IMG/VR virus record: IMGVR_UViG_3300042545_001484
Span: 1-64,000 of that record
DNA: 64,000 nt
Direction: 5' to 3' (one strand)
DNA from: a virus
In this document: positions 5,665 through 35,860 of the stretch, piece after piece
Position numbering within the stretch: the first letter of the stretch is position 1
Layout of the letters: each line of letters opens with the position of its first letter
The notes under the pieces: model-generated
Databases searched by the model: none
Told to the model about the DNA's origin: nothing
Seen by the model: only the letters and a program-made list of their open reading frames with translations
Program-made: the position numbers and the translations under genes

Positions 5665-5691
5665 ACTATTGTGCGAAAAGGAAAAAAGATT

Positions 5692-5865: not shown

Positions 5866-5873
5866 AGTTTATT

Positions 5874-5950
5874 GCGCTGTTAGCTCATCTGGATAGAGCG
5901 CGAGACTTCTAATCTTGAGGCAGCAGGTTCGAGTCCTGCACAGCGCACCA
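5874..5950 (+). tRNA. tRNA-Arg (TCT)
   Basis: Acceptor gcgctgt/acagcgc; anticodon loop cuUCUaa; GGTTCGAGTCC T-loop; CCA encoded. Confidence 0.85.
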
Positions 5951-5951
5951 T

Positions 5952-6026
5952 ACTCCTGTAGCTCAACGGTAGAGCCGACCGCTCATAACGGTTTGGTTAG
6001 GGGTTCGAATCCCTTCGGGAGTACCA
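5952..6026 (+). tRNA. tRNA with CAT anticodon (elongator Met or Ile-lysidine type)
   Basis: Acceptor actcctg/cgggagt with a G-U pair; loop cuCAUaa. No three G-C pairs in the anticodon stem, so not an initiator. Confidence 0.75.
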
Positions 6027-6029
6027 ATT

Positions 6030-6107
6030 GTGTCGATGGCAGAGTGGTCAAATGCAAAGGACTGCAAATCCTTCCAGTCGTGGGTTCGAATCCCACTCGG
6101 CACTCCA
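6030..6107 (+). tRNA. tRNA-Cys (GCA)
   Basis: Acceptor gtgtcga/tcggcac; anticodon stem aagga/tcctt with loop cuGCAaa; GGTTCGAATCC; CCA encoded. Confidence 0.75.
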
Positions 6108-6129
6108 TTTTTAATTTGAGGATTTAAAT

Positions 6130-6708
6130 ATGACAGAAAAAATTAAGATTAAGCGTTCTTGGGATGAAGAAGGCGAAAACTTACCTCAGGTAGTTCCTAG
6201 CGTAGTCTTCAAGACTCGTGTTCGCGATAACTCGATTGAAGGTGACAATCCCTATCGTTGGGAAGATGTGACATCCTTTGATCTGTTCGCTGGCAAACGT
6301 GTTGTTCTGTTCTCGCTTCCAGGTGCATTTACTCCGACTTGTTCGACAATGCAGCTTCCTGGGTTTGAAAACAGCTTCGCCGAGTTTAAGGCTCTGGGTA
6401 TCAAGGATATCTACTGCATCTCAGTCAATGATGCATTCGTAATGAACTGCTGGGCTAAGGCTCAAAAGATTAAGAAGGTCAAGGTAATTCCTGACGGATC
6501 GTGCGAGTTTACTAGCAAGATGCATATGCGGGTTCAGAAAGACAATCTTGGTTTTGGCGAGCGTTCTTGGCGTTATGCTTGTGTTGTGAACAACGGCAAG
6601 ATTGAGAAATGGTTCATCGAACCTGATCCTCGCGATAATGCTGACACTGATCCATACGGCGAAACGTCACCAGAAAACATTCTGGCTTGGTTAAAAACAA
6701 GCGCATAG
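6130..6708 (+). CDS. peroxiredoxin (Prx5-like, AhpC/TSA family)
   Basis: Peroxidatic-Cys motif LPGAFTPTCS; 192 aa. Confidence 0.8.
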   Translation: MTEKIKIKRSWDEEGENLPQVVPSVVFKTRVRDNSIEGDNPYRWEDVTSFDLFAGKRVVLFSLPGAFTPTCSTMQLPGFENSFAEFKALGIKDIYCISVNDAFVMNCWAKAQKIKKVKVIPDGSCEFTSKMHMRVQKDNLGFGERSWRYACVVNNGKIEKWFIEPDPRDNADTDPYGETSPENILAWLKTSA

Positions 6709-6715
6709 AATTTCT

Positions 6716-7150
6716 ATGGAGAAAGTCAGACAATGCGGTGATTGCACTGCATGCTGCGAAGGTTGGCATATGGGGAGCGTTCTGGGATATGATATGTTCC
6801 CAGGACGACCCTGTCAATTTTTATGCAATGGATGCACTATCTACGAAGATAGACCAAAGGATCCTTGCATTGACTATTCTTGTGATTGGCTACGGCAAGA
6901 TGTATTCCCAGAATGGATGCGTCCTGACATCTCAAAGGTTATTATTACTACTAGAGAATGGCAGGATGGATTATATTATGAATTCAGAGAAACTGATGCA
7001 ATAATCAGTTCTCAGATTCTTGCTTGGATCTATGAATTTGGCGCAAAACAAAACCACAATATGAGAGTTATGATCAATAATTACTGGCACAATTATGGTT
7101 CTGTTGAATTTTGTAATGCAGTATCAAACACCTCTGTAGCTCAACGGTAG
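6716..7150 (+). CDS. Cys-rich hypothetical protein (about 12 Cys in the first 60 aa); 3' end overlaps tRNA 7130
   Basis: CGDCTACCEGW...CQFLCNGC...CIDYSC pattern suggests metal binding. The stop lies inside the following tRNA. Confidence 0.45.
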   Translation: MEKVRQCGDCTACCEGWHMGSVLGYDMFPGRPCQFLCNGCTIYEDRPKDPCIDYSCDWLRQDVFPEWMRPDISKVIITTREWQDGLYYEFRETDAIISSQILAWIYEFGAKQNHNMRVMINNYWHNYGSVEFCNAVSNTSVAQR

Positions 7151-7204
7151 AGCATTCGCTTCATACGCGAAAGGTTGTTGGCTCGAGTCCAACCAGAGGT
7201 ACCA
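7130..7204 (+). tRNA. second tRNA with CAT anticodon (Met/Ile2)
   Basis: Acceptor acctctg/cagaggt; anticodon stem ttcgc/gcgaa with loop uuCAUac; CCA encoded. Confidence 0.75.
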
Positions 7205-7205
7205 T

Positions 7206-7282
7206 GTCCCGTTCGTCTAGCGGTCTAGGACACTGCCCTTTCACGGCAGAGATCAGGGGTTCGAATCCCCTACGGGATACCA
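7206..7282 (+). tRNA. tRNA-Glu (TTC)
   Basis: Close to the E. coli tRNA-Glu sequence pattern (GTCCC.TTCGTCTAG...CCCTTTCACGG...); CCA encoded. Confidence 0.9.
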
Positions 7283-7283
7283 T

Positions 7284-7359
7284 ACGGGTATAGCTCAGCT
7301 GGTAGAGCAAACGACCGATAATCGTTAGGTCACAGGTTCGAACCCTGTTACCCGTACCA
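7284..7359 (+). tRNA. tRNA-Ile (GAT)
   Basis: Acceptor acgggta/tacccgt; loop ccGAUaa; CCA encoded. Confidence 0.85.
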
Positions 7360-7387
7360 ATTTGTTTATTAGGTTTTGTAAAAACAA

Positions 7388-7888
7388 ATGTTAAAAAATC
7401 AAAGAAACCTACTCCTTGGAGTGCCTAAGTGTGGGTCCACAACTGCCAGAGAATTTCTAGTTGGTGAGCGAGTAAGCATATTAGAACCTCATATACTATA
7501 CCAAGATATACAAGGGGAGTTCGATAATGTGTATGCATTTTGGAGAGACCCTGTAGATCGGTTTAAGTCTGCTGTGAAGTTCTTTAATGAGACTGACGAG
7601 GATGGAACAGTATGGGATGCTAGAGAGATTATTACAGGCTTAATGTCTGGCGACCCTCCTTTAATGCTCTTTAAACCTCAGTGTGAGTGGTATAAGAATG
7701 TGCCGAATTTAACGATTCTTCCCTTCTCTGAGTACGAAACTAGTATTAGATTTCTAGAGACCATATTTGGGTCTACAGGCGCTGATATACCTAGACTACA
7801 TAAAACAGTAACATTCTTAGAACTTGACGATGATCTGGAAGAAATGGTAAGAAATTACTATAAAGAGGATTATGAGTACGTGTGCTAA
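7388..7888 (+). CDS. sulfotransferase-like protein (166 aa)
   Basis: 5'-PSB-like motif GVPKCGSTT and 3'-PB-like motif RDPVDRFKS, which are the PAPS-binding signatures of sulfotransferases. Short for the family. Confidence 0.45.
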   Translation: MLKNQRNLLLGVPKCGSTTAREFLVGERVSILEPHILYQDIQGEFDNVYAFWRDPVDRFKSAVKFFNETDEDGTVWDAREIITGLMSGDPPLMLFKPQCEWYKNVPNLTILPFSEYETSIRFLETIFGSTGADIPRLHKTVTFLELDDDLEEMVRNYYKEDYEYVC

Positions 7889-7916
7889 GTTTGATGGACG
7901 ATTTTTGAAAATACTT

Positions 7917-7955
7917 CTTGCTTTATTTTTAATTCTAGGTTAGAGTGAATAATAG
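7917..7955 (+). promoter_or_regulatory. conserved promoter cassette (TTGCTT, 17 bp, TAGAGT, GAATAATAGGA)
   Basis: Precedes gene 7959. Confidence 0.6.
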
Positions 7956-7958
7956 GAA

Positions 7959-8174
7959 ATGAAGGAATTCGAAATGGAAGTTTTTGCATTGTTAGGTGAG
8001 TTTGATCACCACGGTTCGCTGTTGTTGGGCGTGTATGCATCTGAAGAAGAAGCACGGACTGCCTACGGTGTGTATACTCGTGACGGCGATCAATTCATCG
8101 ATTTTTACTACATCGAGCATCGTGTAGTCGGCGCTCCTGTAGATTCCGAACGTCATCGGATCTACATCGGTTAA
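7959..8174 (+). CDS. hypothetical protein (71 aa)
   Basis: Promoter plus ATG; acidic. Confidence 0.5.
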   Translation: MKEFEMEVFALLGEFDHHGSLLLGVYASEEEARTAYGVYTRDGDQFIDFYYIEHRVVGAPVDSERHRIYIG

Positions 8175-8182
8175 AGTTTAAT

Positions 8183-8258
8183 GGACCCTTAGCTCAGTCG
8201 GTAGAGCATCGGACTCTTAATCCGCAGGTCGTTGGTTCGAATCCAACAGGGTCTACCA
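8183..8258 (+). tRNA. tRNA-Lys (CTT)
   Basis: Acceptor ggaccct/agggtct; loop cuCUUaa (one mismatch at the top of the anticodon stem); CCA encoded. Confidence 0.8.
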
Positions 8259-8262
8259 ATTC

Positions 8263-8338
8263 GGACGGTTAGCTCAGTAGGTAGAGCAACGGGCTTTTAA
8301 CCTGTGTGTCCTGGGTTCAAACCCCAGACCGTCCACCA
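8263..8338 (+). tRNA. tRNA-Lys (TTT)
   Basis: Acceptor ggacggt/accgtcc; loop cuUUUaa; CCA encoded. Confidence 0.85.
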
Positions 8339-8352
8339 TTTTTGGAGATTGT

Positions 8353-8530
8353 TATGGGTAAAATGATTTTTGCTTTCTTGTCAATGTGTATAATTTTATA
8401 TACAAGCATTGATATTTTCCGTCGGCTGACCGGAAAAGAAAAGATGGAGTTTGTTAAGTTGGCCAGTTACTCGTTGGGCATTGCGACAATCGCGTCGCTA
8501 TTTGCTCTTGCTATTATCGTTTTGTTTTAA
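8353..8530 (+). CDS. small hydrophobic membrane protein (59 aa), possible NfeD-like partner of the SPFH protein
   Basis: MGKMIFAFLSMCIILY...IATIASLFALAIIVLF, two predicted TM helices. Immediately upstream of the SPFH gene. Confidence 0.45.
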
Positions 8531-8542
8531 GGAAGATATATT

Positions 8543-9340
8543 ATGAATCGTATTGCTAAGATTGCTGTGCTCGCTGGTCTCATGGCTACGACTGCTGCTT
8601 GTACTCGAATTGAAACAGGTGAAGTAGGTGTTCGTCGTGCTATCGACAAGACCATTGAAACCACAGAGTTGATGCCAGGATCAATCAACCAGACACTGTT
8701 TGGCGATGTTATGACGTTTCCTACCAAGGACGTTTCTGTTGACGTTGCTGACTTGACTCCACTCGCGTCAGATAACTCGACCGTTGCTGACTTCGACATG
8801 GCAGTCATCTACTCGATCAATCCAGGTTCGGTTGCCGAACTCTACATCGAGAAGAATCGTGGCTTCCACGCTGACACCGAAGAAGGTGATACGCTGTTGA
8901 TGTATAACTACATTCGTCAGTTGGGTCGTAATGCTGCATACAAGGTTGCTCGTCGCTACGAGTCACTGAAGATGGCAGACAATCGTGCTGAAATCGAACA
9001 GCTTGTTCGTCAGGAAATTATTGCAAGCCTCGCATCTGAAAAGCTAGATAACTCAATTTCTATCTCACAGGTTCTGGTTCGTCAGGTCAAGCCTGCAGCC
9101 AATATCGTGCAGTCTGCTAACCTTTTGGTCCAAGCGCAAAATGAAAACAAGCGTAAGGAAGTAGAAGTTTCTACTGCAAAACTTGAAGCACAGCGTATCT
9201 CTGCATTGAATGCTAACGCTGGCGCAACTAAGTATATGGAAGCTACTGCTATCGTGACGATTGCTGAAGCGATTAAGGACGGCAAGGTTAACACCATCGT
9301 TGTTCCTTATGACTTCAAGGGTATTGTCAACGTAAAGTAA
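8543..9340 (+). CDS. SPFH/band-7 (stomatin/prohibitin-like) domain lipoprotein
   Basis: Signal peptide with a lipobox (TTAAC). Band-7 pattern KDVSVDVADLTPLASDNSTVADFDMAVIYSINP followed by a coiled-coil region. Confidence 0.55.
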   Translation: MNRIAKIAVLAGLMATTAACTRIETGEVGVRRAIDKTIETTELMPGSINQTLFGDVMTFPTKDVSVDVADLTPLASDNSTVADFDMAVIYSINPGSVAELYIEKNRGFHADTEEGDTLLMYNYIRQLGRNAAYKVARRYESLKMADNRAEIEQLVRQEIIASLASEKLDNSISISQVLVRQVKPAANIVQSANLLVQAQNENKRKEVEVSTAKLEAQRISALNANAGATKYMEATAIVTIAEAIKDGKVNTIVVPYDFKGIVNVK

Positions 9341-9346
9341 GACATA

Positions 9347-9435
9347 GGAACGTGGGCAGGACGGTAATGCAGCAGACTGCTAATCTGTACTACCTGTAAA
9401 GGGTAGACTGGGTTCGACTCCCAGACGTTCCGCCA
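9347..9435 (+). tRNA. tRNA-Ser (GCT), type II
   Basis: Acceptor ggaacgt/acgttcc; loop cuGCUaa; long variable arm; CCA encoded. Confidence 0.85.
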
Positions 9436-9542
9436 AGTTTGCGTGGTTTGTTTGCATAGAAAAGAGATGAGGTCGACCTTATGTAACCCCATTGAGCAAA
9501 CAGTAATACAGAGCAGCGGGGACTGTTCCACACAGAGTTTAT

Positions 9543-9618
9543 GGTGGTCGAGGTGTTAATGGATACATGCTGGATTGTGAATCCGGAGTTGCGGGATCGT
9601 TACCCGTCGATCACCCCA
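9543..9618 (+). tRNA. tRNA-His (GTG) with encoded G(-1)
   Basis: 8-bp acceptor stem including G-1:C73 (ggtggtcg/cgatcacc), the His identity feature. Loop uuGUGaa. Variant T-loop ATCGTTA. CCA encoded. Confidence 0.75.
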
Positions 9619-9619
9619 T

Positions 9620-9697
9620 GGGGGTATAGGCCAATTGGTTAGAGTCAGGGGACTTAAAATCCCCACAGTGTGGGTTCGAGTCCCACTACCCCTACCA
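9620..9697 (+). tRNA. atypical tRNA, anticodon TAA (Leu, UUA) but class-I architecture
   Basis: Acceptor gggggta/tacccct; anticodon stem gggga/tcccc with loop cuUAAaa; canonical GGTTCGAGTCC T-arm. Only a 3-bp D-stem can be drawn and the variable arm is 5 nt; bacterial tRNA-Leu is normally type II. Confidence 0.5.
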
Positions 9698-9708
9698 TAA
9701 AATAGTGC

Positions 9709-9745
9709 TTGACATATTATTTATTTCGAGTTATAGTGAATTATA
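9709..9745 (+). promoter_or_regulatory. conserved promoter cassette variant (TTGACA, 17 bp, TATAGT) ahead of the structured RNA and tRNA-Thr/Ala
   Basis: Consensus-like sigma70 hexamers at 17-bp spacing. Confidence 0.55.
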
Positions 9746-9794
9746 GTGAGAAAATCACTAAATACGTTGCTCTTTGAAATTGTTAGACCTTTTA

Positions 9795-9912
9795 GATGAC
9801 CACACTGGAAGTTCCTGTGGCGACCAAGCGCTCGGGGGAAGATAGGAACGTAAAGAGCGAAATTACTGCCAGTGTGCGTGGCAACATCTCAGTAGCCAGT
9901 GTGGTCATTTAA
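9795..9912 (+). ncRNA. candidate small structured RNA 1 in the tRNA cluster
   Basis: A 13-bp perfect long-range stem (ATGACCACACTGG...CCAGTGTGGTCAT) encloses about 90 nt with internal hairpins. No ORF. Lies between a promoter and tRNA-Thr. Reminiscent of the T4 stable RNAs C and D. Confidence 0.3.
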
Positions 9913-9922
9913 GAAGTTTACT

Positions 9923-9998
9923 GCCCTTATAGCTCAGTTGGTAGAGCACCTGCCTTGTAAGCAGGGGGTCTGGGGTTCGAGTCCTCATGAGGGCACCA
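9923..9998 (+). tRNA. tRNA-Thr (TGT)
   Basis: Acceptor gccctta/tgagggc; loop cuUGUaa; CCA encoded. Confidence 0.85.
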
Positions 9999-10147
9999 TT
10001 ATTCTAGGATATGAATATGAGAAGCGAATCTGCAGAATGTGTGATGTATGTGCCCGATACACCTTTGAATCGTGCGGCATTTACAGATGAAACGGTTTTA
10101 GCAGAGATATATAAAGTTTCGAATATTAAAATTGTGTTTAAAGAATT

Positions 10148-10223
10148 GGGGGATTAGCTCAGCTGGGAGAGCGTCTGCCTTGCACGCAGAAGGTCAACGG
10201 TTCGATCCCGTTATCCTCCACCA
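10148..10223 (+). tRNA. tRNA-Ala (TGC)
   Basis: G3-U70 identity pair; very close to E. coli tRNA-Ala (GCTCAGCTGGGAGAGC...TTGCACGCAG...). CCA encoded. Confidence 0.9.
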
Positions 10224-10227
10224 TTAT

Positions 10228-10360
10228 AGACCACCTCTGCTGAACCTCGTGGGAAACCACATAGAGAAAAGGGTAGCGCTTGCTGTTGCAACAGTAAAGA
10301 CTATCTAGGAAGATCAAGCGTCCGGAAGTAATTGATCAAGGCACACTGTGGGTGGTCGCT
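10228..10360 (+). ncRNA. candidate small structured RNA 2 in the tRNA cluster
   Basis: Terminal stem AGACCACC...GGTGGTCG with the same GACCAC motif as RNA 1; internal palindrome ctgttgcaacag. No ORF. Between tRNA-Ala and the radical SAM gene. Confidence 0.3.
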
Positions 10361-10377
10361 CATAAAAAGGAATTAAA

Positions 10378-11394
10378 ATGTTATCTTCTAGCGACAGTAA
10401 TATGACTTATGTGCAATCTAGACTCGCCAAGGCGAAGATCAAAATGCTTCAGCTTGATGTGTTTGGATTCTGTAATGCCAAATGTTGGTATTGCCCTGTA
10501 AGATATATTCCTCAGCCAGAAGAAGGCATGGTTCAAATGCCTTTGGAAACTGTCGAGAAAATCTTCAAGCAATTTGTAGAAGAACGAGACAAAGAAGAAG
10601 GTGTTGTTGATCGCAGCTTTAGTTTGTTTATGACAACTCATTATAGCGAGATTCTTTTGTATAAGGATTTTGCTGGGCTGTTGGAACTTGCCAGAAAATA
10701 TAAGCTGCAGACTTTTATTCTCAGTAATGGTATGAACCTGAACAAAGAAAAAGTCGATCTGATCAAAGAGTATAAAGATGTTGTTCCTCATATTGGGCTG
10801 AACATTCCTGCTTTTGAGAAGGAACTGTGGGCAAAGCGTGCTGGGTTTCCTGAAAGACGGTTCGACGAATTGATGGAGAATCTGGATTATGCAGGAGAAA
10901 CTCTGCATGGGCTTATAGAACTCAATATCCATGTCAACGGTGTTAACACTGAAGATTTCAATGGTCGAACAACCAAAGGTCCAAAGTTTGACGAACTTGA
11001 TATTAACTTAGACAGAGAACATGGCGAGTGGGAACGACAGTGGGTGATCGCTGATCGAAGGTTCCCCAAGTTTAATGTCGGCAAAGGTTCGTTGATGGAT
11101 CGCACTGGTTTGCTTTCTGATTATATTTCTAACAAAGAGATGCAGGAACGCAGACTCGAGACTCGCACCGTTGTCGGTTGTGGAAATTGGGGCGACAGAA
11201 CCACCGAATGGCTGCATATCAATGCAGCAGGTGACGTGATTCTTTGTTGTAACGATTATAATTTCGACTATAAGTTTGGAAACATTAACACCCAAACTAT
11301 TCGAGAAATTTGGGGCAGCGATGCCCATGCCGCTACAGTTGAACGAGCATATCGTGAGATATGTGCAAATTGTACGGCAGCAATAATTATCTAA
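10378..11394 (+). CDS. radical SAM enzyme with a C-terminal SPASM/twitch-like Cys-rich domain
   Basis: CxxxCxxC (CNAKCWYC) near the N-terminus. C-terminal cluster VVGCGNWGD...LCCND...ICANC. 338 aa. Confidence 0.7.
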   Translation: MLSSSDSNMTYVQSRLAKAKIKMLQLDVFGFCNAKCWYCPVRYIPQPEEGMVQMPLETVEKIFKQFVEERDKEEGVVDRSFSLFMTTHYSEILLYKDFAGLLELARKYKLQTFILSNGMNLNKEKVDLIKEYKDVVPHIGLNIPAFEKELWAKRAGFPERRFDELMENLDYAGETLHGLIELNIHVNGVNTEDFNGRTTKGPKFDELDINLDREHGEWERQWVIADRRFPKFNVGKGSLMDRTGLLSDYISNKEMQERRLETRTVVGCGNWGDRTTEWLHINAAGDVILCCNDYNFDYKFGNINTQTIREIWGSDAHAATVERAYREICANCTAAIII

Positions 11395-11486
11395 TTGACT
11401 CCGACCTCTGGTTTAAGTTCCGACCTGAACTGACAGGCGGTAACATTTGTGTCCTAGGAAACGCATTTGTTAAGGAGTTTTTATTT

Positions 11487-11562
11487 GCCTTTGTAGCTCA
11501 GTTGGTAGAGCAGTGGATTGAAGATCCACGTGTCGGGGGTTCGACTCCCTCCGAAGGCACCA
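11487..11562 (+). tRNA. tRNA-Phe (GAA)
   Basis: Acceptor gcctttg/cgaaggc; loop uuGAAga; CCA encoded. Confidence 0.85.
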
Positions 11563-11651
11563 GTTAATAGCTAAACTACTCGCATACCGTATGGTGTATG
11601 GAGTCTGTCGTGAATGTTTAGCACGTGTATCGAGACGTGAGATACTCCTAT

Positions 11652-11734
11652 GCGGGTATGGTGGAATTGGCAGACACACTAGTTTTAGGTACTAGCGCTT
11701 CGGCGTGGGGGTTCAAGTCCCTCTACCCGTACCA
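11652..11734 (+). tRNA. tRNA-Leu (TAG), type II
   Basis: Acceptor gcgggta/tacccgt; loop uuUAGgu; long variable arm; CCA encoded. Confidence 0.85.
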
Positions 11735-11740
11735 TTTTAA

Positions 11741-11825
11741 GGGTCGGTAAAGCCAGTGGCTCTGGCAGTCGGACTGTAAATCCGATCCGTCTTCGGGGGA
11801 GGATCGATACCTCACTGACCCACCA
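11741..11825 (+). tRNA. tRNA-Tyr (GTA), type II
   Basis: Acceptor gggtcgg/ctgaccc with a G-U pair; loop cuGUAaa; long variable arm; variant T-loop ATCGATA; CCA encoded. Confidence 0.75.
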
Positions 11826-11827
11826 TT

Positions 11828-11903
11828 GGGGGCGTAGCTCAATCGGGAGAGCACCAGCTTGTCACGCTGGAGGTAGTGGGATCGAAACCCATCGTCCTCG
11901 CCA
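11828..11903 (+). tRNA. tRNA-Asp (GTC)
   Basis: Acceptor gggggcg/cgtcctc with two G-U pairs; loop uuGUCac; CCA encoded. Confidence 0.8.
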
Positions 11904-11918
11904 CTAAATAAGTTTAAT

Positions 11919-11993
11919 GCGGATGTAACTCAGTGGTAGAGTGTCAGCCTTCCAAGCTGTTCGTCGTCGGTTCGATCCCGATCATCCGCTCCA
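11919..11993 (+). tRNA. tRNA-Gly (TCC)
   Basis: Acceptor gcggatg/catccgc; loop cuUCCaa; resembles E. coli tRNA-Gly2; CCA encoded. Confidence 0.85.
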
Positions 11994-11999
11994 CTTTTG

Positions 12000-12080
12000 C
12001 CCAAGTATCCCTCTCCGCTACGAACGGAGCCAAAGGTAACTGGAAGTAAGATGCAGGTTCGAATCCTGTCGAGGGCTCCA
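12000..12080 (+). pseudogene. degenerate tRNA-like element: intact T-arm, 3' acceptor strand and CCA, an Arg(ACG)-type anticodon hairpin, but no canonical 5' acceptor or D-arm
   Basis: GCAGGTTCGAATCCTGT, then CGAGGGC-T-CCA, but no complementary 5' strand. Hairpin ctccg-CUACGAA-cggag. Could not be folded into a cloverleaf. Confidence 0.3.
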
Positions 12081-12085
12081 TATAT

Positions 12086-12162
<77 letters not shown>

Positions 12163-12168
12163 GTTTTT

Positions 12169-12243
12169 GTCGGTGTGGTGAAATGGCTATCATTACGGTC
12201 TCCAAAACCGTCGTTCCGAGTTCGAGTCTCGGCACCTTCGCCA
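12169..12243 (+). tRNA. tRNA-Trp (CCA) with two mismatches in the acceptor stem
   Basis: D-arm, anticodon stem acggt/accgt with loop cuCCAaa, and T-arm are canonical. Acceptor gtcggtg/caccttc has C3-U70 and U2-U71 mismatches. Confidence 0.55.
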
Positions 12244-12258
12244 GTTTTTAGGTGATTT

Positions 12259-12696
12259 ATGTTTGATGAAGCAAAGAAGGCAATTATAGAATCAAGCGAC
12301 ACTTCTACAATTTATGTTGGTGCCGATAGCATTCGATATAAAAAGAACAAGGAGTGGTGGGCAAAGTATTCGACCGTGATCATCCTGCACAAGGATTCGA
12401 AGCATGGTTGTCAGCTTTGGCACAATTCGGTTGACATGCGCGACTACGGAAACCTTCGTCAAAGAATGATCACCGAAGCTGGATTTGCGATCCAAGCAGC
12501 AACAGAAATTATTGATGTTGTTGGCGATCGCAAACTAGAAATTCACCTTGACATCAATCCTGATCCTAAGCACAAATCTAGTATTGCGATAAAAGAAGCA
12601 TTGGGATATGTCAAAGGAACTACTGGTCTTGATGCAAAAGTTAAACCTGAGGCATTTGCTGCAACGCATGCAGCTGACCATATGGTAAGAAGTTAA
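12259..12696 (+). CDS. hypothetical protein inside the tRNA cluster (145 aa), possible RNase-H-like nuclease fold
   Basis: IYVGADS, VIILH and EIHLDINPDP segments loosely resemble the acidic catalytic segments of RNase-H-like nucleases. Ends 2 nt before tRNA-Val. Weak call. Confidence 0.5.
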   Translation: MFDEAKKAIIESSDTSTIYVGADSIRYKKNKEWWAKYSTVIILHKDSKHGCQLWHNSVDMRDYGNLRQRMITEAGFAIQAATEIIDVVGDRKLEIHLDINPDPKHKSSIAIKEALGYVKGTTGLDAKVKPEAFAATHAADHMVRS

Positions 12697-12697
12697 T

Positions 12698-12773
12698 GCG
12701 GGATTAGCTCAGTTGGTAGAGCGTCTGCTTTACACGCAGAATGTCGGCAGTTCGAGCCTGTCATCCCGTACCA
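12698..12773 (+). tRNA. tRNA-Val (TAC)
   Basis: Acceptor gcgggat/atcccgt (G1-U72); loop uuUACac; CCA encoded. Confidence 0.85.
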
Positions 12774-12966: not shown

Positions 12967-13254
12967 ATGCAATATGATGTTATCTTTCAACTGATCGCCG
13001 ATGTCGGCTTCCCCATCGCAGCTTGTTTGCTCGGTGGGGTTTTCGTGTATTTTGTGATCAACTATATTCTTGAGAGTGTTTTGAAAGCAATCAAAGGAAT
13101 GCAAGGTATCATTATGGGGTTGGACAACCGAGTGAAAACTATGAACCACGACATTATTCGTGTTGATGCTGTAGTTAGTTCTGCTCTTGGTCTTCGACCT
13201 GATTTGGATAGAATCGCCCGAGCAGATGGAAAGAATGATGCTCGGAGGGACTGA
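12967..13254 (+). CDS. small membrane protein, paralog A (95 aa): N-terminal TM helix plus C-terminal helix
   Basis: Tandem paralog of 13254..13520: GFPIAACLLGGVFVYFVINYI versus GFPIVASVGMGYFVFFIYKFV, and a conserved NRV/DRI...MxxDIIR segment. Confidence 0.5.
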   Translation: MQYDVIFQLIADVGFPIAACLLGGVFVYFVINYILESVLKAIKGMQGIIMGLDNRVKTMNHDIIRVDAVVSSALGLRPDLDRIARADGKNDARRD

Positions 13255-13520
13255 TGGATCCACAAGTTGTTGCGGAGTTAATAAAACAATATGGTTTCCC
13301 GATCGTAGCGTCTGTGGGAATGGGTTACTTTGTATTCTTTATCTATAAGTTTGTTACTGACAGATTAATGCCTCTGATTGGTGAAACAAATGTAATTTTG
13401 ATCGCACTGATTGATCGTATTAGAATGTTGGACAATGATCTAATTAGGTTACAACAAAAGGTTAACGTTGTGCTGCAGGTTCACGAGGAGCATAAAAATG
13501 CAAGTAAATCTAAAGATTGA
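13254..13520 (+). CDS. small membrane protein, paralog B (88 aa)
   Basis: See paralog A; start overlaps the stop of A. Confidence 0.5.
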   Translation: MDPQVVAELIKQYGFPIVASVGMGYFVFFIYKFVTDRLMPLIGETNVILIALIDRIRMLDNDLIRLQQKVNVVLQVHEEHKNASKSKD

Positions 13521-13576
13521 AATCCTCAAAGTCTTCGAGCTCAACTTTTCTTTTTGTTCAAACAAAAAAATAAAGG

Positions 13577-14029
13577 ATGGGAAAGATGCTAAAACGAGTG
13601 ACGGCACTAATGCTGCTCCTGACAAGCAGCCACCTGCAAGCAAGTGAACTGGTCCATCAATTTAAAAATCCTTCATTCTCTGGCGTCAATGCTGGAGCGC
13701 AATGGCTGACGATTGAAAATCAAGAGACTCTGCGTAAAAAAACTATACAGGACAAGATAGAAGCTGATTTGAAAGCAAAGGCTCTCGAAGAAAAAAACTC
13801 TATTTTGAATCGTTTCTTGAATAACTTGCAGTCTCGTATCTATTCTCAGCTGGCACAACAGCTTACCAATAATTTGTTTGGCGAAGATGGCGGAGAGGCT
13901 GGAGAATTCATACTCGAAGGCAACACTATCAAGTATGAAAAAACTGAAACAGAAATTAAACTTGTGATCATTGATGCAGCTGGCAATCAAACTGAGATTA
14001 TAGTTCCAACAAGTGGATTCAAGTGGTAA
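13577..14029 (+). CDS. csgF: CsgF-like curli assembly protein
   Basis: Signal peptide. The mature N-terminus ELVHQFKNPSFSGVNAGAQWLTIENQ matches the E. coli CsgF N-terminus ([28 protein letters not shown]). Stop overlaps the csgG start (TAATG). Confidence 0.6.
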   Translation: MGKMLKRVTALMLLLTSSHLQASELVHQFKNPSFSGVNAGAQWLTIENQETLRKKTIQDKIEADLKAKALEEKNSILNRFLNNLQSRIYSQLAQQLTNNLFGEDGGEAGEFILEGNTIKYEKTETEIKLVIIDAAGNQTEIIVPTSGFKW

Positions 14030-14841
14030 TGTGGAAGATTCTATTATTACCTTTTCTTCTGTGTGGTTGCGTGGCATCTGGACCTGTTGGTCTTCAATTA
14101 AAAGAAGATGCAAAGATTGTAAAGACACAAGTCAAAGAATTATACAACCTTCCTGCGCCTGACAGACAAGCAGTAGTAGCGGTTTATGACTTTCCTGATA
14201 TGACAGGTCAACGCAGAGATAAAGATGGTATTGCCAGCATATCAACTGCAGTCACACAAGGCGGAACACCACTATTAATTTCTGCTTTGAGGGATGCAGG
14301 TGGAGGAACATGGTTTAGAGTTGTAGAACGAAATCGTGTCGAGGATCTTGCCAAAGAACGTCAGATTGTTAGACAGACTCGTGAAGAATATCTTGGTGAG
14401 GGTGCAAATAAACTCGAACCAATGCTGTTCGCTGGGCTCATCATCCAAGGTGGTATTATCGGGTATGATAGTAACATACAGACAGGCGGAGCAGGAGCAA
14501 GATATCTTGGTGTAGGAGGCTCTGTCGTCTACCGAAAAGATCAGGTTGTTGTTTCTCTGCGAGGAGTCAACACTAATACTGGAGAAGTTGTTCTTAATGT
14601 GCAAGTTTCTAAAACAGTATTATCTGTCGGTAAAGATCTGTCACTGTTTAAATTTGTCGATGTTGGCACAAAATTGGTGGAAGCCGAAGCAGGCATGACC
14701 GAAAATGAAGCCAACACCATGGCAGTCAAAATGGCGATTGAAGAAGCAGTTTTACAATTGATAAAACAGGGTATCGAGAAAGGATATTTTAAGTTCGCAC
14801 CGAAGATCGATATCGATCGATCGGTATCATTAAAGGAATAA
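14029..14841 (+). CDS. csgG: CsgG curli secretion channel lipoprotein
   Basis: Lipobox LLCGC. Long collinear similarity to E. coli CsgG: LPAP...VAVYDFPDMTGQ, LISALRDAGGGTWFRVVERNRVEDLAKERQI, GGIIGYDSNIQTGGAGARYLGVGG, VNTNTGEVVLNV. Confidence 0.85.
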   Translation: MWKILLLPFLLCGCVASGPVGLQLKEDAKIVKTQVKELYNLPAPDRQAVVAVYDFPDMTGQRRDKDGIASISTAVTQGGTPLLISALRDAGGGTWFRVVERNRVEDLAKERQIVRQTREEYLGEGANKLEPMLFAGLIIQGGIIGYDSNIQTGGAGARYLGVGGSVVYRKDQVVVSLRGVNTNTGEVVLNVQVSKTVLSVGKDLSLFKFVDVGTKLVEAEAGMTENEANTMAVKMAIEEAVLQLIKQGIEKGYFKFAPKIDIDRSVSLKE

Positions 14842-14846
14842 GGGTA

Positions 14847-15542
14847 ATGAAAAATAAAATAGCTCTTTTCATTATGTTTCTGATGACGAGTTCGGTGAGT
14901 TTTGCACAAACAACAACCAACTCGATTTTTATTGATCAGGTCGGTGATAGTAGCACTATTACTATTACCCAAAAAGGTCAAACCAACAGCATCGGTTCTG
15001 AGCAGAATCGAGTAGTAATTGAAGGTAATAACCAAACAGTTACAGTCAAACAAGAAGGTAATGGAAACATTATCCAAGGCTCTATTGTTCAAGCAGATAA
15101 TGTCGATAAGGATGTTACTGTTACTGGCGACAACAATAAGTTGACGTATGACGAAGGCGATAGCGGTAGTGTGGCTGGATCCACCAAAACACTTACAGTG
15201 ACTGGGGATTCAAACGACTTGACCTTTAATCAGGGTACAGCGGCATCAGCCACTAATGCTACACAAACTATCGCAATCACTGGTGACACCAACACAATGA
15301 CATCCACCATAAATGCGGATGATGTGGTGAACACTAAGACTATTGTTGGTGATGGTAATACTATTACTACGCTGCAGAATGGCAATGCTGGGAAGAATAT
15401 TGAATTGGTTCTTACAGGCAGTACAAATACATTAACAATAAATCAGCAGAGCACAACAAATGTTGACACACTTAAAGTTGATAGCACGAGCAACGGCAGC
15501 ACTATTACTATTAATCAGTGCAACGCAGGTGGTCCATGCTAA
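14847..15542 (+). CDS. secreted curlin-repeat-like (CsgA/CsgB-type) beta-solenoid protein
   Basis: Signal peptide. About 8 imperfect ~22-aa repeats of the form x-I-x-I-x-Q-x-G-x-x-N-x-I (IDQVGDSSTITITQKGQTNSIGSEQ...) reminiscent of curlin repeats. C-terminal Cys pair. Confidence 0.5.
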   Translation: MKNKIALFIMFLMTSSVSFAQTTTNSIFIDQVGDSSTITITQKGQTNSIGSEQNRVVIEGNNQTVTVKQEGNGNIIQGSIVQADNVDKDVTVTGDNNKLTYDEGDSGSVAGSTKTLTVTGDSNDLTFNQGTAASATNATQTIAITGDTNTMTSTINADDVVNTKTIVGDGNTITTLQNGNAGKNIELVLTGSTNTLTINQQSTTNVDTLKVDSTSNGSTITINQCNAGGPC

Positions 15543-22688: not shown

Positions 22689-22690
22689 TT

Positions 22691-23353: not shown

Positions 23354-23563
23354 ATGAGTAAGTTTATTTGGGTAAGAGATCGCGACAAGTTTGAACACTA
23401 TATTAATGTAAATCATATCATCGATGTGAAAAAGATTCCGGCACATGGCGTTTATAGCGCCGCCGCATATATCATATTAGCAAAAGAAGGCGAAATTCCC
23501 TTATCTCTGGATCAGTTCGATACATATGAGGATGTGATCACCAAAATTCAGGCTGCAGCATGA
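23354..23563 (+). CDS. hypothetical protein (about 70 aa)
   Basis: Short ORF whose stop overlaps the start of the epimerase gene. Confidence 0.4.
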   Translation: MSKFIWVRDRDKFEHYINVNHIIDVKKIPAHGVYSAAAYIILAKEGEIPLSLDQFDTYEDVITKIQAAA

Positions 23564-24555
23564 AGAAGGCGATTGTTACTGGAGCATCAGGGTTCATCGG
23601 GCGTGTTCTCCAGCTAAAGCTGAAAGAAGCTGGTTATTATGTCATTGGCGTAGACGTAAAGTGTGACAATTACGACTGGAACACTGATGAGTTTTTTATT
23701 GATAATTATGCAACAATTGCCTCTGACGGCGATCTGGATGGCGTTGATGCAATCTTCCATCTTGGCGCTAACAGTTTGCTTGGGCCATCGGTATCCAAAC
23801 CACTATACTACTATGATAATAACGTTAGTAGTATGTGCGATATGCTGTCCAATTTAGCTAGAGAAAACTGGAAGGGTGCATTTATCTTTGCATCCTCTGC
23901 TGCAACATATGGTGATATGCGCAGCCCTGATCCTTTGCCTGAAGTTGTGGCTGGAAGTCCAATCAATCCCTATGGCTCAACCAAGTGGGTTGGTGAGATG
24001 ATGTTGAAAGAATCATGCGAAGCGTATGGCCTCAAGGCATACTCAATGCGCTTCTTCAATGTTGCTGGTGCATACAAAGGTATCGGCCAAGCTGCTAATC
24101 AACCACATATCCTTACCAAAATGTCAAAGGCATCTTTGACTGATGACACATTCTACATCAACGGTAATGAATACGACACCTTTGATGGAACATGCGTAAG
24201 AGATTATATCCACGTAGCTGATGTGTGTGATGCTCTGGTTGCTGCAGCAGAACAACTATATAATAAGCCTGAACGTGAATACGACACCTTCAATGTTTGC
24301 AGTGGCAAACCTGTGTCGAATCTGCAACTTGCTCTTACATTCGCAAAACTATATCCTCTGGAATATGATATTGCGGAAGTTCGTCCAGGCGATCCTGGAT
24401 TCCTGATTGGCGATCCATATAAATTGTCGTTGATGTGGCCAGAAGGTCCAAAGTATGATCTCGCCGACATCATCACTTCACACTTTGAATCTATTAGTAG
24501 CCAGATGCTTGTTGGGCAACCATGGCTCCGAACTTACGATGGGAAATTACAATGA
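23560..24555 (+). CDS. hldD: NAD-dependent sugar-nucleotide epimerase, HldD-like (ADP-L-glycero-D-manno-heptose 6-epimerase)
   Basis: GASGFIGRV Rossmann motif. Collinear with HldD: VDAIFHLGANS, FIFASSAATYGD, NPYGSTK (YxxxK), YSMRFFNVAG. Confidence 0.65.
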   Translation: MKKAIVTGASGFIGRVLQLKLKEAGYYVIGVDVKCDNYDWNTDEFFIDNYATIASDGDLDGVDAIFHLGANSLLGPSVSKPLYYYDNNVSSMCDMLSNLARENWKGAFIFASSAATYGDMRSPDPLPEVVAGSPINPYGSTKWVGEMMLKESCEAYGLKAYSMRFFNVAGAYKGIGQAANQPHILTKMSKASLTDDTFYINGNEYDTFDGTCVRDYIHVADVCDALVAAAEQLYNKPEREYDTFNVCSGKPVSNLQLALTFAKLYPLEYDIAEVRPGDPGFLIGDPYKLSLMWPEGPKYDLADIITSHFESISSQMLVGQPWLRTYDGKLQ

Positions 24556-25550
24556 GTAGTATTTGGGAACGTAATGAATTGAACGCAAAGTCTCAAGGTG
24601 GGACAGAGCGAATGATGGAAGGTGTTCTGGCTCGATTGAAGCCAGAGTACCACGAAAAGTTTCAGATTATCCCCTCGCGTGTGCGCGAGCTGCATGATGA
24701 TCGCATCCGTATCTATTGGTTGCACGATTTGCCTTGGGATCCCGAGACCAAGCATTTGACCGCCGAGAACAGTCGCAACCGTTTCCACAAGATTGTCTAC
24801 TGTGGCCAGTGGCAGATGAACATGTACCAAAATCATTTGGGAATTCCGCACACTCAGCAAAGCTGTGTCATTGATACTGCGACAACTCCTTTTGGCCCAA
24901 TCAACAAGAGTGATCCGAAAGAAGAAATTCGTTTGGTTTACACCAGCACTCCTCAACGTGGTCTGAACATTCTTGTTCCTGTGTTCGAGAAGCTATGCGA
25001 AAAGTATGACAATATCGTGCTTGACGTTTTCTCAAGCTATAAGATCTACGGTTGGGAAAATGCTGATCAACAGTTCGAGGATCTGTTTGACAAGTGTCGT
25101 AATCATCCTAAGATTAACTACCATGGCTTTGCTCCGAACGAAACAGTTCGTGAGACTGTCGCAAAGGCACATATCTTTGCCTATCCTTCGATCTGGCCAG
25201 AATGCAACAGCCAGTCGTTGATCGAGGCAATGTCATCTGGTGCTGTCTGTGTTCACCCGAACTATGCTGGTCTTACCGATACCTCGGGTAGCATTACCAT
25301 TCAGTACCATTGGGATCAGGATGTCAATGTTCATGCGAATATGTTCTATGCTGTTCTGGATGACACAATCCAAAAGATGCGCGACAATGATATGATGCCG
25401 TATCTACAGTTCCAAAAGACTTATGCCGACTATCGCTACAACTGGGATAAGATTGGTAGTCAATGGAATGCGCTCTGCGAATCGTTGTTGAATGAATACG
25501 AAGGTAAGGATCTGTCTGTTCCTGCTCCCAAGTTTATCTACAAGTCGTAA
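24552..25550 (+). CDS. glycosyltransferase (GT-B, family 1/4-like)
   Basis: C-terminal ESQSLIEAMSSGAVCV...GLTD motif typical of GT4. Start overlaps the epimerase stop. Confidence 0.55.
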   Translation: MSSIWERNELNAKSQGGTERMMEGVLARLKPEYHEKFQIIPSRVRELHDDRIRIYWLHDLPWDPETKHLTAENSRNRFHKIVYCGQWQMNMYQNHLGIPHTQQSCVIDTATTPFGPINKSDPKEEIRLVYTSTPQRGLNILVPVFEKLCEKYDNIVLDVFSSYKIYGWENADQQFEDLFDKCRNHPKINYHGFAPNETVRETVAKAHIFAYPSIWPECNSQSLIEAMSSGAVCVHPNYAGLTDTSGSITIQYHWDQDVNVHANMFYAVLDDTIQKMRDNDMMPYLQFQKTYADYRYNWDKIGSQWNALCESLLNEYEGKDLSVPAPKFIYKS

Positions 25551-25552
25551 TT

Positions 25553-26497
25553 ATGATTCTTGCTAAGGCACCTCTTCGAGTTTCCTTCTTTGGTGGTGGG
25601 TCGGATATTCCTGCCCACTACCTTCGTTGGGGCGGATCAACAATCTCTACTGCGATTGACAAGTATGTCTACGTTGCAGTAGGAAGAACTCCTCAGAATC
25701 ACATCAAGATCAACTATTCTAAACAAGAATTGGTGACTGCTGTTGATGACATTCAAAATGAAATTGTCAAGAATGCCTTAAAATATTTCGGTATCAAATC
25801 TAATATCGAGATCACCACGTTCGCTGATATTCCTACAGTTGGCACAGGGTTGGCAGGTTCTTCTGCTTTCGCCTGTGCACTGGTGGCTGCTCTTGCTGAA
25901 TATTTCCCTAACGGTAAACGGTATAGCGAATATGAGTTAGCGGAAGCTGCATGTAACATTGAGATCGATATGTGCGGCTGGGCAATCGGGAAGCAAGATC
26001 AGTATGCCTCTGCCTTCGGTGGCATGAATTATATTGAATATCTTGCCAGCGATCGGGTGTTGGTCCAGAGAATCGACCCTAAAGGCATCGATAGCTCCAT
26101 GGTTTTGATTCCGACAAACATTCAGCGCCATGCTGCAGAGATTCTCAATAAAATTGATTTTGATCAAAAGACATACCTCATTCGTGAAATGTCACACATG
26201 GCGGATATGCATGCCGACCTTTCTCCGACCTACGATCTCTACGGTCCACTGCTCAACGAAGCATGGAAGTTTAAGAAACAGCTGGAAGGTGGAATCAGCA
26301 GCCCAGAGATTGATTCTCTTTATGACCGATGCCTGAAGGCTGGTGCGTCAGGGGCAAAGCTGCTTGGCGCAGGAGGAGGTGGATATATGCTGGCTCTGAC
26401 TGACAACAAAAACAAATTGAAGCATGAGTTTTCTGATCGAGTCTGTCTTGATGTGGCTGTCGCATTAGACGGGGCAAGAGTAGTATACAAGGATTAA
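25553..26497 (+). CDS. GHMP-family sugar kinase, HddA-like (D-glycero-D-manno-heptose-7-phosphate kinase)
   Basis: N-terminal APLRVSFFGGGSDIP; GHMP motif II PTVGTGLAGSSAFACA; motif III GAGGGGYM. Confidence 0.7.
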   Translation: MILAKAPLRVSFFGGGSDIPAHYLRWGGSTISTAIDKYVYVAVGRTPQNHIKINYSKQELVTAVDDIQNEIVKNALKYFGIKSNIEITTFADIPTVGTGLAGSSAFACALVAALAEYFPNGKRYSEYELAEAACNIEIDMCGWAIGKQDQYASAFGGMNYIEYLASDRVLVQRIDPKGIDSSMVLIPTNIQRHAAEILNKIDFDQKTYLIREMSHMADMHADLSPTYDLYGPLLNEAWKFKKQLEGGISSPEIDSLYDRCLKAGASGAKLLGAGGGGYMLALTDNKNKLKHEFSDRVCLDVAVALDGARVVYKD

Positions 26498-26499
26498 AC

Positions 26500-27099
26500 A
26501 TGACAACACCATATTATACTCTAGATTCATACGCAGCAGAACTGTCACGTGCATTGAGCACTGTTGATCTGAAAGAACTTGACCTAGCAACCAGAAAGAT
26601 TTACGCTACCAAAGGAAACATTTATGTCTGTGGTAATGGCGGTTCGGCAGCTATCGCGGAACATCTGACCTGTGACTGTATGAAGGGTGTTGCTATGGAA
26701 TCAGATCTAGGGCAGTGGTTGAACATCACATCTCTAGCGTCCAACTTCCCTCTCATCTCTGCCATTGCCAACGACATTGGATATAATGAAATCTTTTCAA
26801 AACAAATTGAATGGCAGGTCAAAGATGGTGCTGCCGATGTTCTGATCGCTATCAGTTCCAGCGGTAATTCCCCGAACATTCTTAATGCGATTTCTAAGGC
26901 AGAAGAAAAGGGAATGGAAACTATTGCCATTGTTGGATTTGATGGTGGCGATGCGAAACAACTTGCTAACATTGTCATTCATATCGATTCTGACAATTAT
27001 GGTATCATTGAAGATGCCAGCCAAGCCATTATGCATTTCATGGCTCAACTGATGAGACGTTGGGCTTCTAACAAAGATCCAAGGGATATTAAATACTGA
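26500..27099 (+). CDS. gmhA: sedoheptulose-7-phosphate isomerase (GmhA, SIS domain)
   Basis: VCGNGGSAAIAEHLTCD and ISSSGNSPNIL, characteristic GmhA/SIS signatures. Confidence 0.8.
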   Translation: MTTPYYTLDSYAAELSRALSTVDLKELDLATRKIYATKGNIYVCGNGGSAAIAEHLTCDCMKGVAMESDLGQWLNITSLASNFPLISAIANDIGYNEIFSKQIEWQVKDGAADVLIAISSSGNSPNILNAISKAEEKGMETIAIVGFDGGDAKQLANIVIHIDSDNYGIIEDASQAIMHFMAQLMRRWASNKDPRDIKY

Positions 27100-32335: not shown

Positions 32336-32338
32336 ACT

Positions 32339-35622: not shown

Positions 35623-35650
35623 GTTTCAATTTTATTCTAAGGATTAACAC

Positions 35651-35851: not shown

Positions 35852-35860
35852 TTGACTAGC

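Follow-up and report, generated by a model that had tools for sequence, protein, structure and literature searches.

A Twitch-type radical SAM enzyme encoded among the tRNA genes of a T4-like phage and the association of its family with glycosyltransferases

What does a radical S-adenosylmethionine (SAM) enzyme do in the middle of a phage transfer RNA (tRNA) array? The question is raised by a gene at 10378..11394 (+ strand) of a 64,000-nucleotide (nt) stretch of viral DNA, positions 1 to 64,000 of IMG/VR record IMGVR_UViG_3300042545_001484, which as a whole is called the window here. The window derives from a T4-like myovirus with NrdA/B, baseplate hub and wedge proteins and gp32, and it has a GC content of 43%, 23 tRNAs and a transfer-messenger RNA (tmRNA). 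An earlier note, made from the letters of this DNA, had described the product as a radical SAM enzyme with a SPASM domain, and had suggested from its position a role in tRNA or RNA modification or in hypermodification of phage DNA. In our analysis the gene encoded a Twitch-type radical SAM enzyme of a mostly phage-borne family whose members were repeatedly fused to, or located beside, glycosyltransferases. We consider it about an even bet that the substrate of the enzyme is a sugar of some glycosylation pathway.

The gene, its family and its enzyme class

The open reading frame (ORF) lay exactly where the earlier note had put it, on the + strand with 338 codons plus a stop, and the call was supported by Pfam domains, homologues and an AlphaFold 2 model. 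It began with ATG, and the ribosome-binding site AAGGA was found about 8 nt 5' of the start codon. Pfam assigned Radical_SAM (PF04055) to residues 28-178 (E=8e-15, 55.8 bits against a cutoff of 29.5) and SPASM (PF13186) to residues 276-333 (E=3e-12, 47.1 bits against a cutoff of 21.5). The structural model was of high quality (predicted local distance difference test score, pLDDT, 90.9; predicted template modelling score, pTM, 0.88). A search of 5.8 billion proteins returned 252 homologues of about 330 amino acids (aa) with both domains, and an alignment of 62 sequences contained 40 invariant columns, including all eight cysteines of the protein. The possibility of a chance ORF was excluded because of these homologues, the invariant columns and the pLDDT, indicating a genuine radical SAM gene. 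A scan for promoters and terminators around it gave counts at or below shuffle expectation.

The family comprised more than 250 metagenomic clusters and was carried by 203 viral contigs; most members were phage-borne and bacterial chromosomal ones occurred too. An exhaustive hidden Markov model (HMM) search of 1.84 billion representatives gave 89 family clusters at E<=1e-30, which is a lower bound counted at the 50% identity level. As the earlier note had held, the gene was not part of the T4 core: tblastn searches of 50,697 GenBank phage records, for which the window protein and a distant member served as queries, gave no match. Megablast of the region against GenBank phages matched the tRNAs only, so this DNA is without a close relative there. 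In the literature we came upon no work on the function of this family or of the glycosyltransferase fusions described below. The domain class is well known; the family is not, and has no curated model, name or paper.

The classification as a radical SAM enzyme stood firmly, since PF04055 scored above its cutoff and the CX3CX2C motif was present. The motif that had been noticed near the N-terminus, CNAKCWYC, was located at residues 32-39 (C32-N-A-K-C36-W-Y-C39; 10471..10494, + strand). Its three cysteines are predicted to bind the SAM-cleaving [4Fe-4S] cluster, and they were invariant in the 62 aligned homologues and in all members fused to glycosyltransferases. The protein also showed the partial TIM-barrel fold of the AdoMet (SAM) radical core.

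The C-terminal region was described only partly correctly in the earlier note, which had counted seven cysteines in a SPASM/twitch-like region: the Pfam SPASM match was sound, and the seven cysteines were not there. Besides the three cysteines of CX3CX2C, the protein had five (268, 290, 291, 329 and 332), arranged as C268-X16-G285-X4-C290-C291 ... C329-X2-C332 (11179..11373, + strand). The SPASM domain is defined by the seven-cysteine motif CX9-15GX4C-gap-CX2CX5CX3C-gap-C and has two auxiliary clusters, whereas in the Twitch layout one cysteine stands before and one after a beta-hairpin (GX4C) and two follow the next helix (PMC6231123). The CX2CX5CX3C block was absent from the window protein, and the NCBIfam SPASM model TIGR04085 reached 21.5 bits, below its cutoff of 27; of the three HMMs that the earlier note had named as a check, PF04055 and PF13186 thus matched above their cutoffs and TIGR04085 did not. 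The Twitch layout was found, with cysteines flanking the hairpin and CX2C behind a helix. In the AlphaFold 2 model a beta-hairpin (strands 278-281 and 286-288) lay between C268 and C290, helix 315-326 preceded C329-X2-C332, and the protein ended six residues past C332. All five C-terminal cysteines were invariant, also in the fused members, and the region contained the family hallmark C-C-(N/Q)-D-(Y/F). The cysteine pattern and the model therefore place the protein in the SPASM/Twitch fold class, with one auxiliary [4Fe-4S] cluster predicted on C268, C290, C329 and C332 and an additional invariant cysteine, C291.

Among solved structures, the best match to the family profile was BtrN (E=6.7e-8), the butirosin 2-deoxy-scyllo-inosamine dehydrogenase and founding Twitch-domain radical SAM enzyme (PDB 4M7T/4M7S). 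The cluster motif reads CNRTCWYCP in BtrN and CNAKCWYCP in the window protein. Profile residues 275-328 and the Twitch region of BtrN aligned such that C290 matched the post-hairpin cysteine and C329/C332 the CX2C, and both proteins have a truncated SPASM region, implying one auxiliary cluster. Furthermore, BtrN acts on a carbohydrate-like small molecule, and its pathway includes glycosyltransferases. However, the identity was only about 20% (35 bits), and the window protein exceeds BtrN by about 90 residues and has an insertion (about 180-265) between barrel and Twitch domain. It also has the extra invariant C291 and the C-C-(N/Q)-D-(Y/F) hallmark. The family is mostly phage-borne, with fusions to GT60, GT2 and an uncharacterised family that we call c4, and it lacks an aminoglycoside cluster context. 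The window protein is therefore not assigned to the BtrN family on these differences, though it may work alike.

BtrN, DesII and BlsE were all among the structural matches of the model. These three are radical SAM enzymes acting just before or after a glycosyltransfer step; DesII acts on a TDP-sugar and BlsE on cytosylglucuronic acid. The tailoring of a sugar beside a glycosyltransfer step is the logic that we propose for the window enzyme, and near close-clade members of the family we repeatedly found a gene for a UDP-glucose/GDP-mannose dehydrogenase. The likeness of DesII and BlsE to the window protein was nevertheless limited to TM-scores of about 0.5 and identities of 12-14%, with no family match at the sequence level.

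Other known families were tried and rejected. The anSME model TIGR03942 scored 22.1 bits against a cutoff of 349, the prokaryotic viperin model NF038283 24.9 bits against 180, and TYW1 14.5 bits against 318, TYW1 being a weak profile match with E of about 0.01. No QueE match appeared among the NCBIfam models, and membership in QueE or in the tRNA- or rRNA-modifying families (TYW1, MiaB/RimO, RlmN/Cfr) was not supported. All NCBIfam equivalog models for radical SAM-SPASM maturases of peptides that are synthesised on ribosomes and modified after translation (RiPPs) remained far below their cutoffs.

Fusion to and adjacency with glycosyltransferases

The signal that the earlier note had not anticipated is the coupling of the family to glycosyltransferases, which is family-wide. 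We clustered the neighbouring ORFs of 80 viral loci and 19 loci from bacterial genomes, and two immediate same-strand partners of the radical SAM gene emerged: a GT60-type glycosyltransferase (PF11397, 'GlcNAc') and c4. The GT60-type gene adjoined the radical SAM gene in about 19 viral loci, on either side and with gaps of 6-57 nt, and the c4 protein of 314 aa did so in about 31 loci. Of 109 loci, 58 had GT60 or c4, and in most of these the partner and the radical SAM gene shared a strand and were about 0-60 nt apart. When redundancy was reduced at 90% identity, GT60, c4 or a family 2 glycosyltransferase (GT2, PF00535) was fused to the radical SAM gene or located within 150 nt in 36 of 61 lineages; at 70% identity the figure was 12 of 29.

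Several members were fused to their partners in a single polypeptide. For example, one 622-aa ORF in Syntrophorhabdaceae (L097:5083-6951) contained PF11397 (208 bits), Radical_SAM and SPASM, and GT60 fusions were also found in P0248, P0273 and P0309. Fusions with GT2 occurred in both orders, the glycosyltransferase being N-terminal in P0319 and P0327 and C-terminal in P0251. Furthermore, c4 was joined in frame to the radical SAM part in P0241 and in at least nine viral loci, with ORFs of about 660 aa. The fused members were 26-45% identical to the window protein. The family signature consists of C268, G285, C-C-(N/Q)-D-(Y/F), D241-R242, N142-x-P144, H/S88-Y89-x-E/D91 and the terminal CX2C; the window protein carried every one of these residues, and members fused to GT60, GT2 and c4 shared them. 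Because this signature is retained, the fused proteins are on sequence grounds genuine members of the family. Such fusions appear to be undescribed in the literature that we searched. Since the fusions were independent, involved three unrelated families, occurred in both orders and were seen in phages and bacteria, chance co-location is unlikely, and these sequence patterns argue for a functional coupling of the radical SAM enzyme with its glycosyltransferase partners.

The c4 family belonged to phrog_4417 in PHROGs, where its function is unannotated, and had more than 3,300 homologues or protein clusters, all of them 'hypothetical'. Its invariant motifs were H-D-x-D and N-A-G (for example in L060:5054-5995 and relatives). 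It was found in glycosylation islands of marine myophages, and Firmicutes phages had it in their morphogenesis modules; the homologues of cultured Firmicutes phages carry no annotation, and the copy of Enterococcus phage VPE25 (L109) lay inside a morphogenesis module. From the H-D-x-D motif, the position and the analogy to the GT60 and GT2 fusions, our guess is that c4 could be a glycosyltransferase. The GT60 alignment itself gave no match when compared with the PDB.

Genes farther out in these loci often pointed to sugars or to large proteins. In a 299-kb phage contig (L114), a 2,475-aa Peptidase_S74 tail-fibre-type protein was followed by a 316-aa ORF, c4, the radical SAM gene and an 83-aa ORF, beyond which came a GT1 plus methyltransferase, a GT9-like (heptosyltransferase-like) gene, a cytidylyltransferase-like gene and a PfkB sugar kinase. 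A tail-fibre-type neighbour was documented in this contig only. Giant ORFs were located near the radical SAM gene in many loci, and the one in L040 was a cytidylyltransferase-like multidomain protein, not a fibre; the ORF after the radical SAM gene there resembled a 'cytidylyltransferase like protein' of a Microcystis phage. A UDP-glucose/GDP-mannose dehydrogenase gene was found within about 2 kb in 11 close-clade loci, together with 2-oxoglutarate (2OG)-Fe(II)/JmjC oxygenases. One GT2 fusion stood at the end of a giant-protein cluster (2,047+ aa, 800 aa and a Laminin_G_3 protein), and a second was preceded by MopE-repeat proteins. In Syntrophorhabdaceae chromosomes (L092-L100, L107; e.g. L097:2896-7844), pentapeptide-repeat, DUF3540 and Tox-PAAR-like genes directly preceded the GT60 fusion, and a conserved 258-aa protein of no known function came after it. 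These three kinds of genes form an accessory set of the type VI secretion system (T6SS), and the position after such genes is the usual site of T6SS cargo or effector genes.

Substrate of the enzyme

If the enzyme acts on a sugar, the reaction could proceed as follows. SAM would be cleaved at the [4Fe-4S] cluster on C32/C36/C39, and the 5'-deoxyadenosyl radical would take a hydrogen from a sugar carbon, either of a nucleotide-sugar donor or of a sugar already transferred by the partner glycosyltransferase. The substrate radical may then be oxidised via the auxiliary Twitch cluster in a BtrN-like dehydrogenation to a keto-sugar, after which dehydration or decarboxylation would be possible. In the two-electron oxidation by BtrN, the electron of the substrate radical is passed to the Twitch cluster, as proposed (PMC9012708). 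In a second possible route, the extra invariant C291 would quench the radical from the opposite face, resulting in epimerisation. What results would be a tailored glycan attached to a macromolecule, and the contexts most often point to large fibrous, virion or surface proteins. In the phage of the window the enzyme stands alone and would work in trans, possibly with a sugar island about 12 kb downstream; a partner glycosyltransferase may also be encoded outside the window.

This island, a nucleotide-sugar or glycosylation set by its Pfam domains (23560..27099, + strand), encodes an NAD-dependent epimerase/dehydratase (23560-24555), a GT1-family glycosyltransferase (24522-25550), a GHMP sugar kinase (25553-26497) and a SIS-domain sugar-phosphate isomerase (26500-27099), all on the + strand, which is a heptose-type nucleotide-sugar set. 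The GT1 gene, about 13 kb downstream of the radical SAM gene, was the only glycosyltransferase found in the window. Two unannotated + strand ORFs (27099-27599 and 27580-27864) follow the island. The family-wide link between radical SAM and glycosyltransferase genes is the sole reason for proposing the island as a partner, and by this analogy it is possibly a candidate pathway for the enzyme in trans.

A bolder proposal is that the family is the catalytic half of a hitherto undescribed module of glycosyltransferase and Twitch radical SAM enzyme, often joined in one protein, that places radical-tailored sugars on large fibrous proteins, the window enzyme doing so in trans with the heptose-type island. 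Its targets in phages would be tail fibres or virion proteins, and those in bacteria would be T6SS-associated proteins or giant proteins of the surface. We regard this proposal as tentative and rather doubtful.

Several points weigh against a sugar substrate. The fold by itself does not reveal what the enzyme acts on, and the fold scores of ChlB, anSME, SuiB and SkfB were as high as that of BtrN. Likewise, fusion to a glycosyltransferase leaves undecided whether the target of the radical SAM part is the sugar, the acceptor or the donor. The window and most of the clade with at least 48% identity had no adjacent glycosyltransferase, the sugar island being 12 kb off, and neither GT60 nor c4 turned up when the 64-kb window was searched with tblastn. 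The commonest partner, c4, had no Pfam match, no profile similarity to GT60 in hhalign and no significant hit in a PDB profile search, where the best was protein O-glucosyltransferase 2 (E=0.39). The betaproteobacterial contexts (trehalase, C39-ABC exporter, EamA, YceI) were uninformative, and the literature contained no biochemical data for any family member that we could find.

The strongest competitor, which we still think unlikely, is that the enzyme modifies a side chain of the acceptor protein of its partner glycosyltransferase, by C-H oxidation, epimerisation or cross-linking, and leaves the sugar alone. The analogy is with anSME, EpeE and ChlB, which act on polypeptides, and the targets would again be large fibrous, virion or surface proteins. 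In fact, Pfam describes PF11397/GT60 as a protein (hydroxyproline) GlcNAc transferase family, genes of the protein-hydroxylase type (2OG-Fe(II)/JmjC) were found in the flanks of 23 of 113 loci, and giant repeat or fibre proteins and pentapeptide-repeat/PAAR-like genes precede genes for glycosyltransferase and radical SAM enzyme. However, nucleotide-sugar enzymes co-occurred equally often as the hydroxylases, and the nearest solved relative by sequence is BtrN, a small-molecule enzyme. The protein had no N-terminal domain of the RiPP recognition element (RRE) type and no other peptide-binding domain there, its radical SAM core beginning near residue 20, and the anSME model TIGR03942 gave 22 bits against 349. 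Compared with anSME, ChlB, SuiB and SkfB, which are SPASM/Twitch enzymes modifying polypeptides, the window protein is without the full seven-cysteine SPASM motif and the second auxiliary cluster (by prediction), without the RRE or peptide-binding N-domain and, in the window, without a conserved precursor peptide.

The neighbouring curli-like operon offers another candidate substrate. A curli-like type VIII secretion cluster (12967-18613, + strand; Pfam) starts with two small membrane proteins of 95 and 88 aa, from 12967 on, and continues on the same strand with CsgF (13577-14029), CsgG (14023-14841), a Curlin_rpt protein (14847-15542), a FecR-domain protein (15460-16551) and a CHASE2-adenylate/guanylate cyclase (16532-18613). 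The enzyme could serve this operon, with the pair of small membrane proteins, the curlin-repeat protein or some other exported substrate as the target of modification. The order radical SAM, 95 aa, 87 aa, CsgF and CsgG was kept in 13-14 close-clade loci, with a gap of 14 nt after the radical SAM gene, and the window retains the same operon at 12967-15542, the Curlin_rpt protein included. However, about 1.5 kb with seven tRNAs, an RNaseH-like gene and a manA RNA motif separates the two in the window, and the close relatives L004, L111 and L113 and all distant members lacked curli genes. Pelagimyophages carry curli genes widely, whereas their radical SAM cassettes are variable (PMC7029224). We consider a service to the curli-like operon improbable.

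These pelagimyophages are one of the closest parallels by description. Zaragoza-Solas et al. (2020; PMC7029224) reported variable radical SAM cassettes in pelagimyophage host-recognition clusters. The likeness is in marine T4-like myophages with CsgF/CsgG and radical SAM genes as variable accessory content; no function was assigned, and the present family, the Twitch pattern and the glycosyltransferase fusions were not described. The curli-like CsgF/CsgG cluster of the window resembles those of the pelagimyophages and of OM43 phage Melnitz. It is different in that a curlin-repeat protein was recognisable in the window, while CsgA/B equivalents were not recognisable in pelagimyophages (PMC7029224). 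The phage of the window, with 43% GC, 23 tRNAs and a tmRNA, is also not a pelagiphage (about 33% GC).

Hypermodification of phage DNA, which the earlier note had named, appeared equally improbable. In this case a partner glycosyltransferase would place a sugar or side chain on a modified base and the enzyme would tailor that group; the idea draws on the glycosylation of DNA by T4-like phages, on the coupling of the family to glycosyltransferases and on the nucleotide-metabolism genes of the region (NrdA/B, dCMP deaminase, glutaredoxin). The partners, however, were GT-A-type GT60 and GT2 enzymes together with heptose and cytidylyltransferase genes beside fibre-like proteins, not known DNA glucosyltransferase families. 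No hydroxymethylase-type gene was among the annotated ORFs of the window, and bacterial chromosomal homologues were located in non-phage contexts.

A RiPP maturase working on a small precursor peptide is less probable still, though the class of radical SAM-SPASM/Twitch enzymes is rich in such maturases (PMC9012708). A 42-aa ORF lay about 40 nt upstream of the radical SAM gene in 13 close relatives, and a cysteine-rich DUF6171 ORF was upstream of it in 18 distant loci. However, the 42-aa product contains no cysteine and is conserved in one clade only, neither ORF was found in the window, and no other small ORF flanks the gene there. The search for a precursor peptide among the neighbours, which the earlier note had proposed, thus yielded none in the flanks within the window. 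The idea of a peptide maturase was not borne out by the domain content either, given that no RRE-type domain was found and the RiPP-maturase models of NCBIfam all scored far below their cutoffs. A homologue in Duganella sp. 1411 (L106:7694-11809, - strand) stands beside a 1,371-aa C39-peptidase ABC exporter and a trehalase, which would fit a maturase; this was the sole context hinting at a link with peptide export.

The tRNA array and other genes of the window

The position among tRNA genes, from which the earlier note had argued for an RNA-related role, was correctly described. ARAGORN and Rfam placed tRNA-Ala(UGC) at 10148-10223 (+ strand), 155 nt upstream of the radical SAM gene, and tRNA-Phe(GAA) at 11487-11562 (+ strand), 93 nt downstream, and we judged both to be without a functional link to it. 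The array (5590-12773, + strand) comprised 21 tRNAs, which were interleaved with unrelated protein genes and did not form one block. The interleaved genes encoded a peroxiredoxin, a CxxCxxCC-motif protein, two unknowns, a small membrane protein, an SPFH protein, the radical SAM enzyme and an RNaseH-like protein. Two further tRNAs (Ser, Gln) lay apart from the main array at 35532-35934, and ARAGORN flagged a 'tmRNA*' at 31898-32352 (+ strand) with the tag peptide ANDNDVAFALAA.

For 90 loci, flanks of up to 6 kb on each side were surveyed for tRNAs. A tRNA was present in 23 of them and within 1 kb in 11. Homologues in 22 of the 23 tRNA-bearing loci were at least 48% identical to the window protein, the exception being L068 with one tRNA 2.5 kb off; about 60 loci at 39-47% identity had no tRNA within the fetched flanks, save L068. 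In L001 and L007 (55-57% identity), the stretch from peroxiredoxin to radical SAM, 95 aa, 87 aa, CsgF and CsgG was contiguous and the tRNA block lay 2-3 kb upstream of the radical SAM gene. The tRNAs were also more compact in the related contigs L001 and L004 than in the window, where they are interleaved, which suggests that tRNAs were repeatedly inserted or shuffled among accessory genes. Because adjacency to tRNAs is absent from the roughly 60 loci at 39-47% identity, it belongs to a hyperplastic accessory region that one phage clade carries and is no trait of the enzyme family; the location of the window gene would accordingly reflect such a region rather than a function. The inference of a role in RNA from position was therefore unsupported. 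Modification of tRNA or other RNA is the least probable of all the explanations: it has the flanking tRNAs of the window, the 11 of 90 loci and the weak TYW1 matches (E about 0.01) on its side, and has against it tRNA proximity confined to one clade, at least eight unrelated genes equally interleaved, a TYW1 score of 14.5 bits against 318, and glycosyltransferase fusions without RNA-related domains.

Within the array, the 144-aa CxxCxxCC-motif protein (QCGDCTACCEGW; phrog_9155; 6716..7150, + strand) is a tentative partner only. Its homologues lay 0.8-3.2 kb upstream of the radical SAM gene in 11 close-clade loci, and in P0285 a PF03692 CxxCxxCC domain was fused N-terminally to the radical SAM part. 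Pfam called no domain on the window protein, and its similarity to the PF03692 domain of P0285 was restricted to the motif (E=0.002). A possible function is that of an Fe-S or electron-transfer helper. A manA RNA motif (RF01745; 12780-12949, + strand; Rfam 66.1 bits against a gathering score of 55.2) was located between tRNA-Val and the 95-aa gene heading the curli-like operon, which would be its regulatory target. Farther downstream on the + strand, the window encodes a protein in which glutaredoxin and WYL_2 (Sm-like SH3) domains are fused (22679-23206) and a DUF932 protein (29429-30391).

For annotation, the locus teaches that a location inside a phage tRNA array is weak evidence for an RNA-related function. 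SPASM/Twitch radical SAM enzymes are usually read as peptide maturases, and the consistent partners of this family were glycosyltransferases of three unrelated families. An orphan family thereby gains a functional lead that can be tested, and the natural fusions of glycosyltransferase and radical SAM enzyme provide single-polypeptide constructs for doing so. To our knowledge, almost nothing is known about radical sugar chemistry in phage glycosylation islands, and our results point to such chemistry in islands beside tail-fibre genes. If this is true, it would be a new route for the diversification of protein and virion glycans, which would affect host range and recognition.

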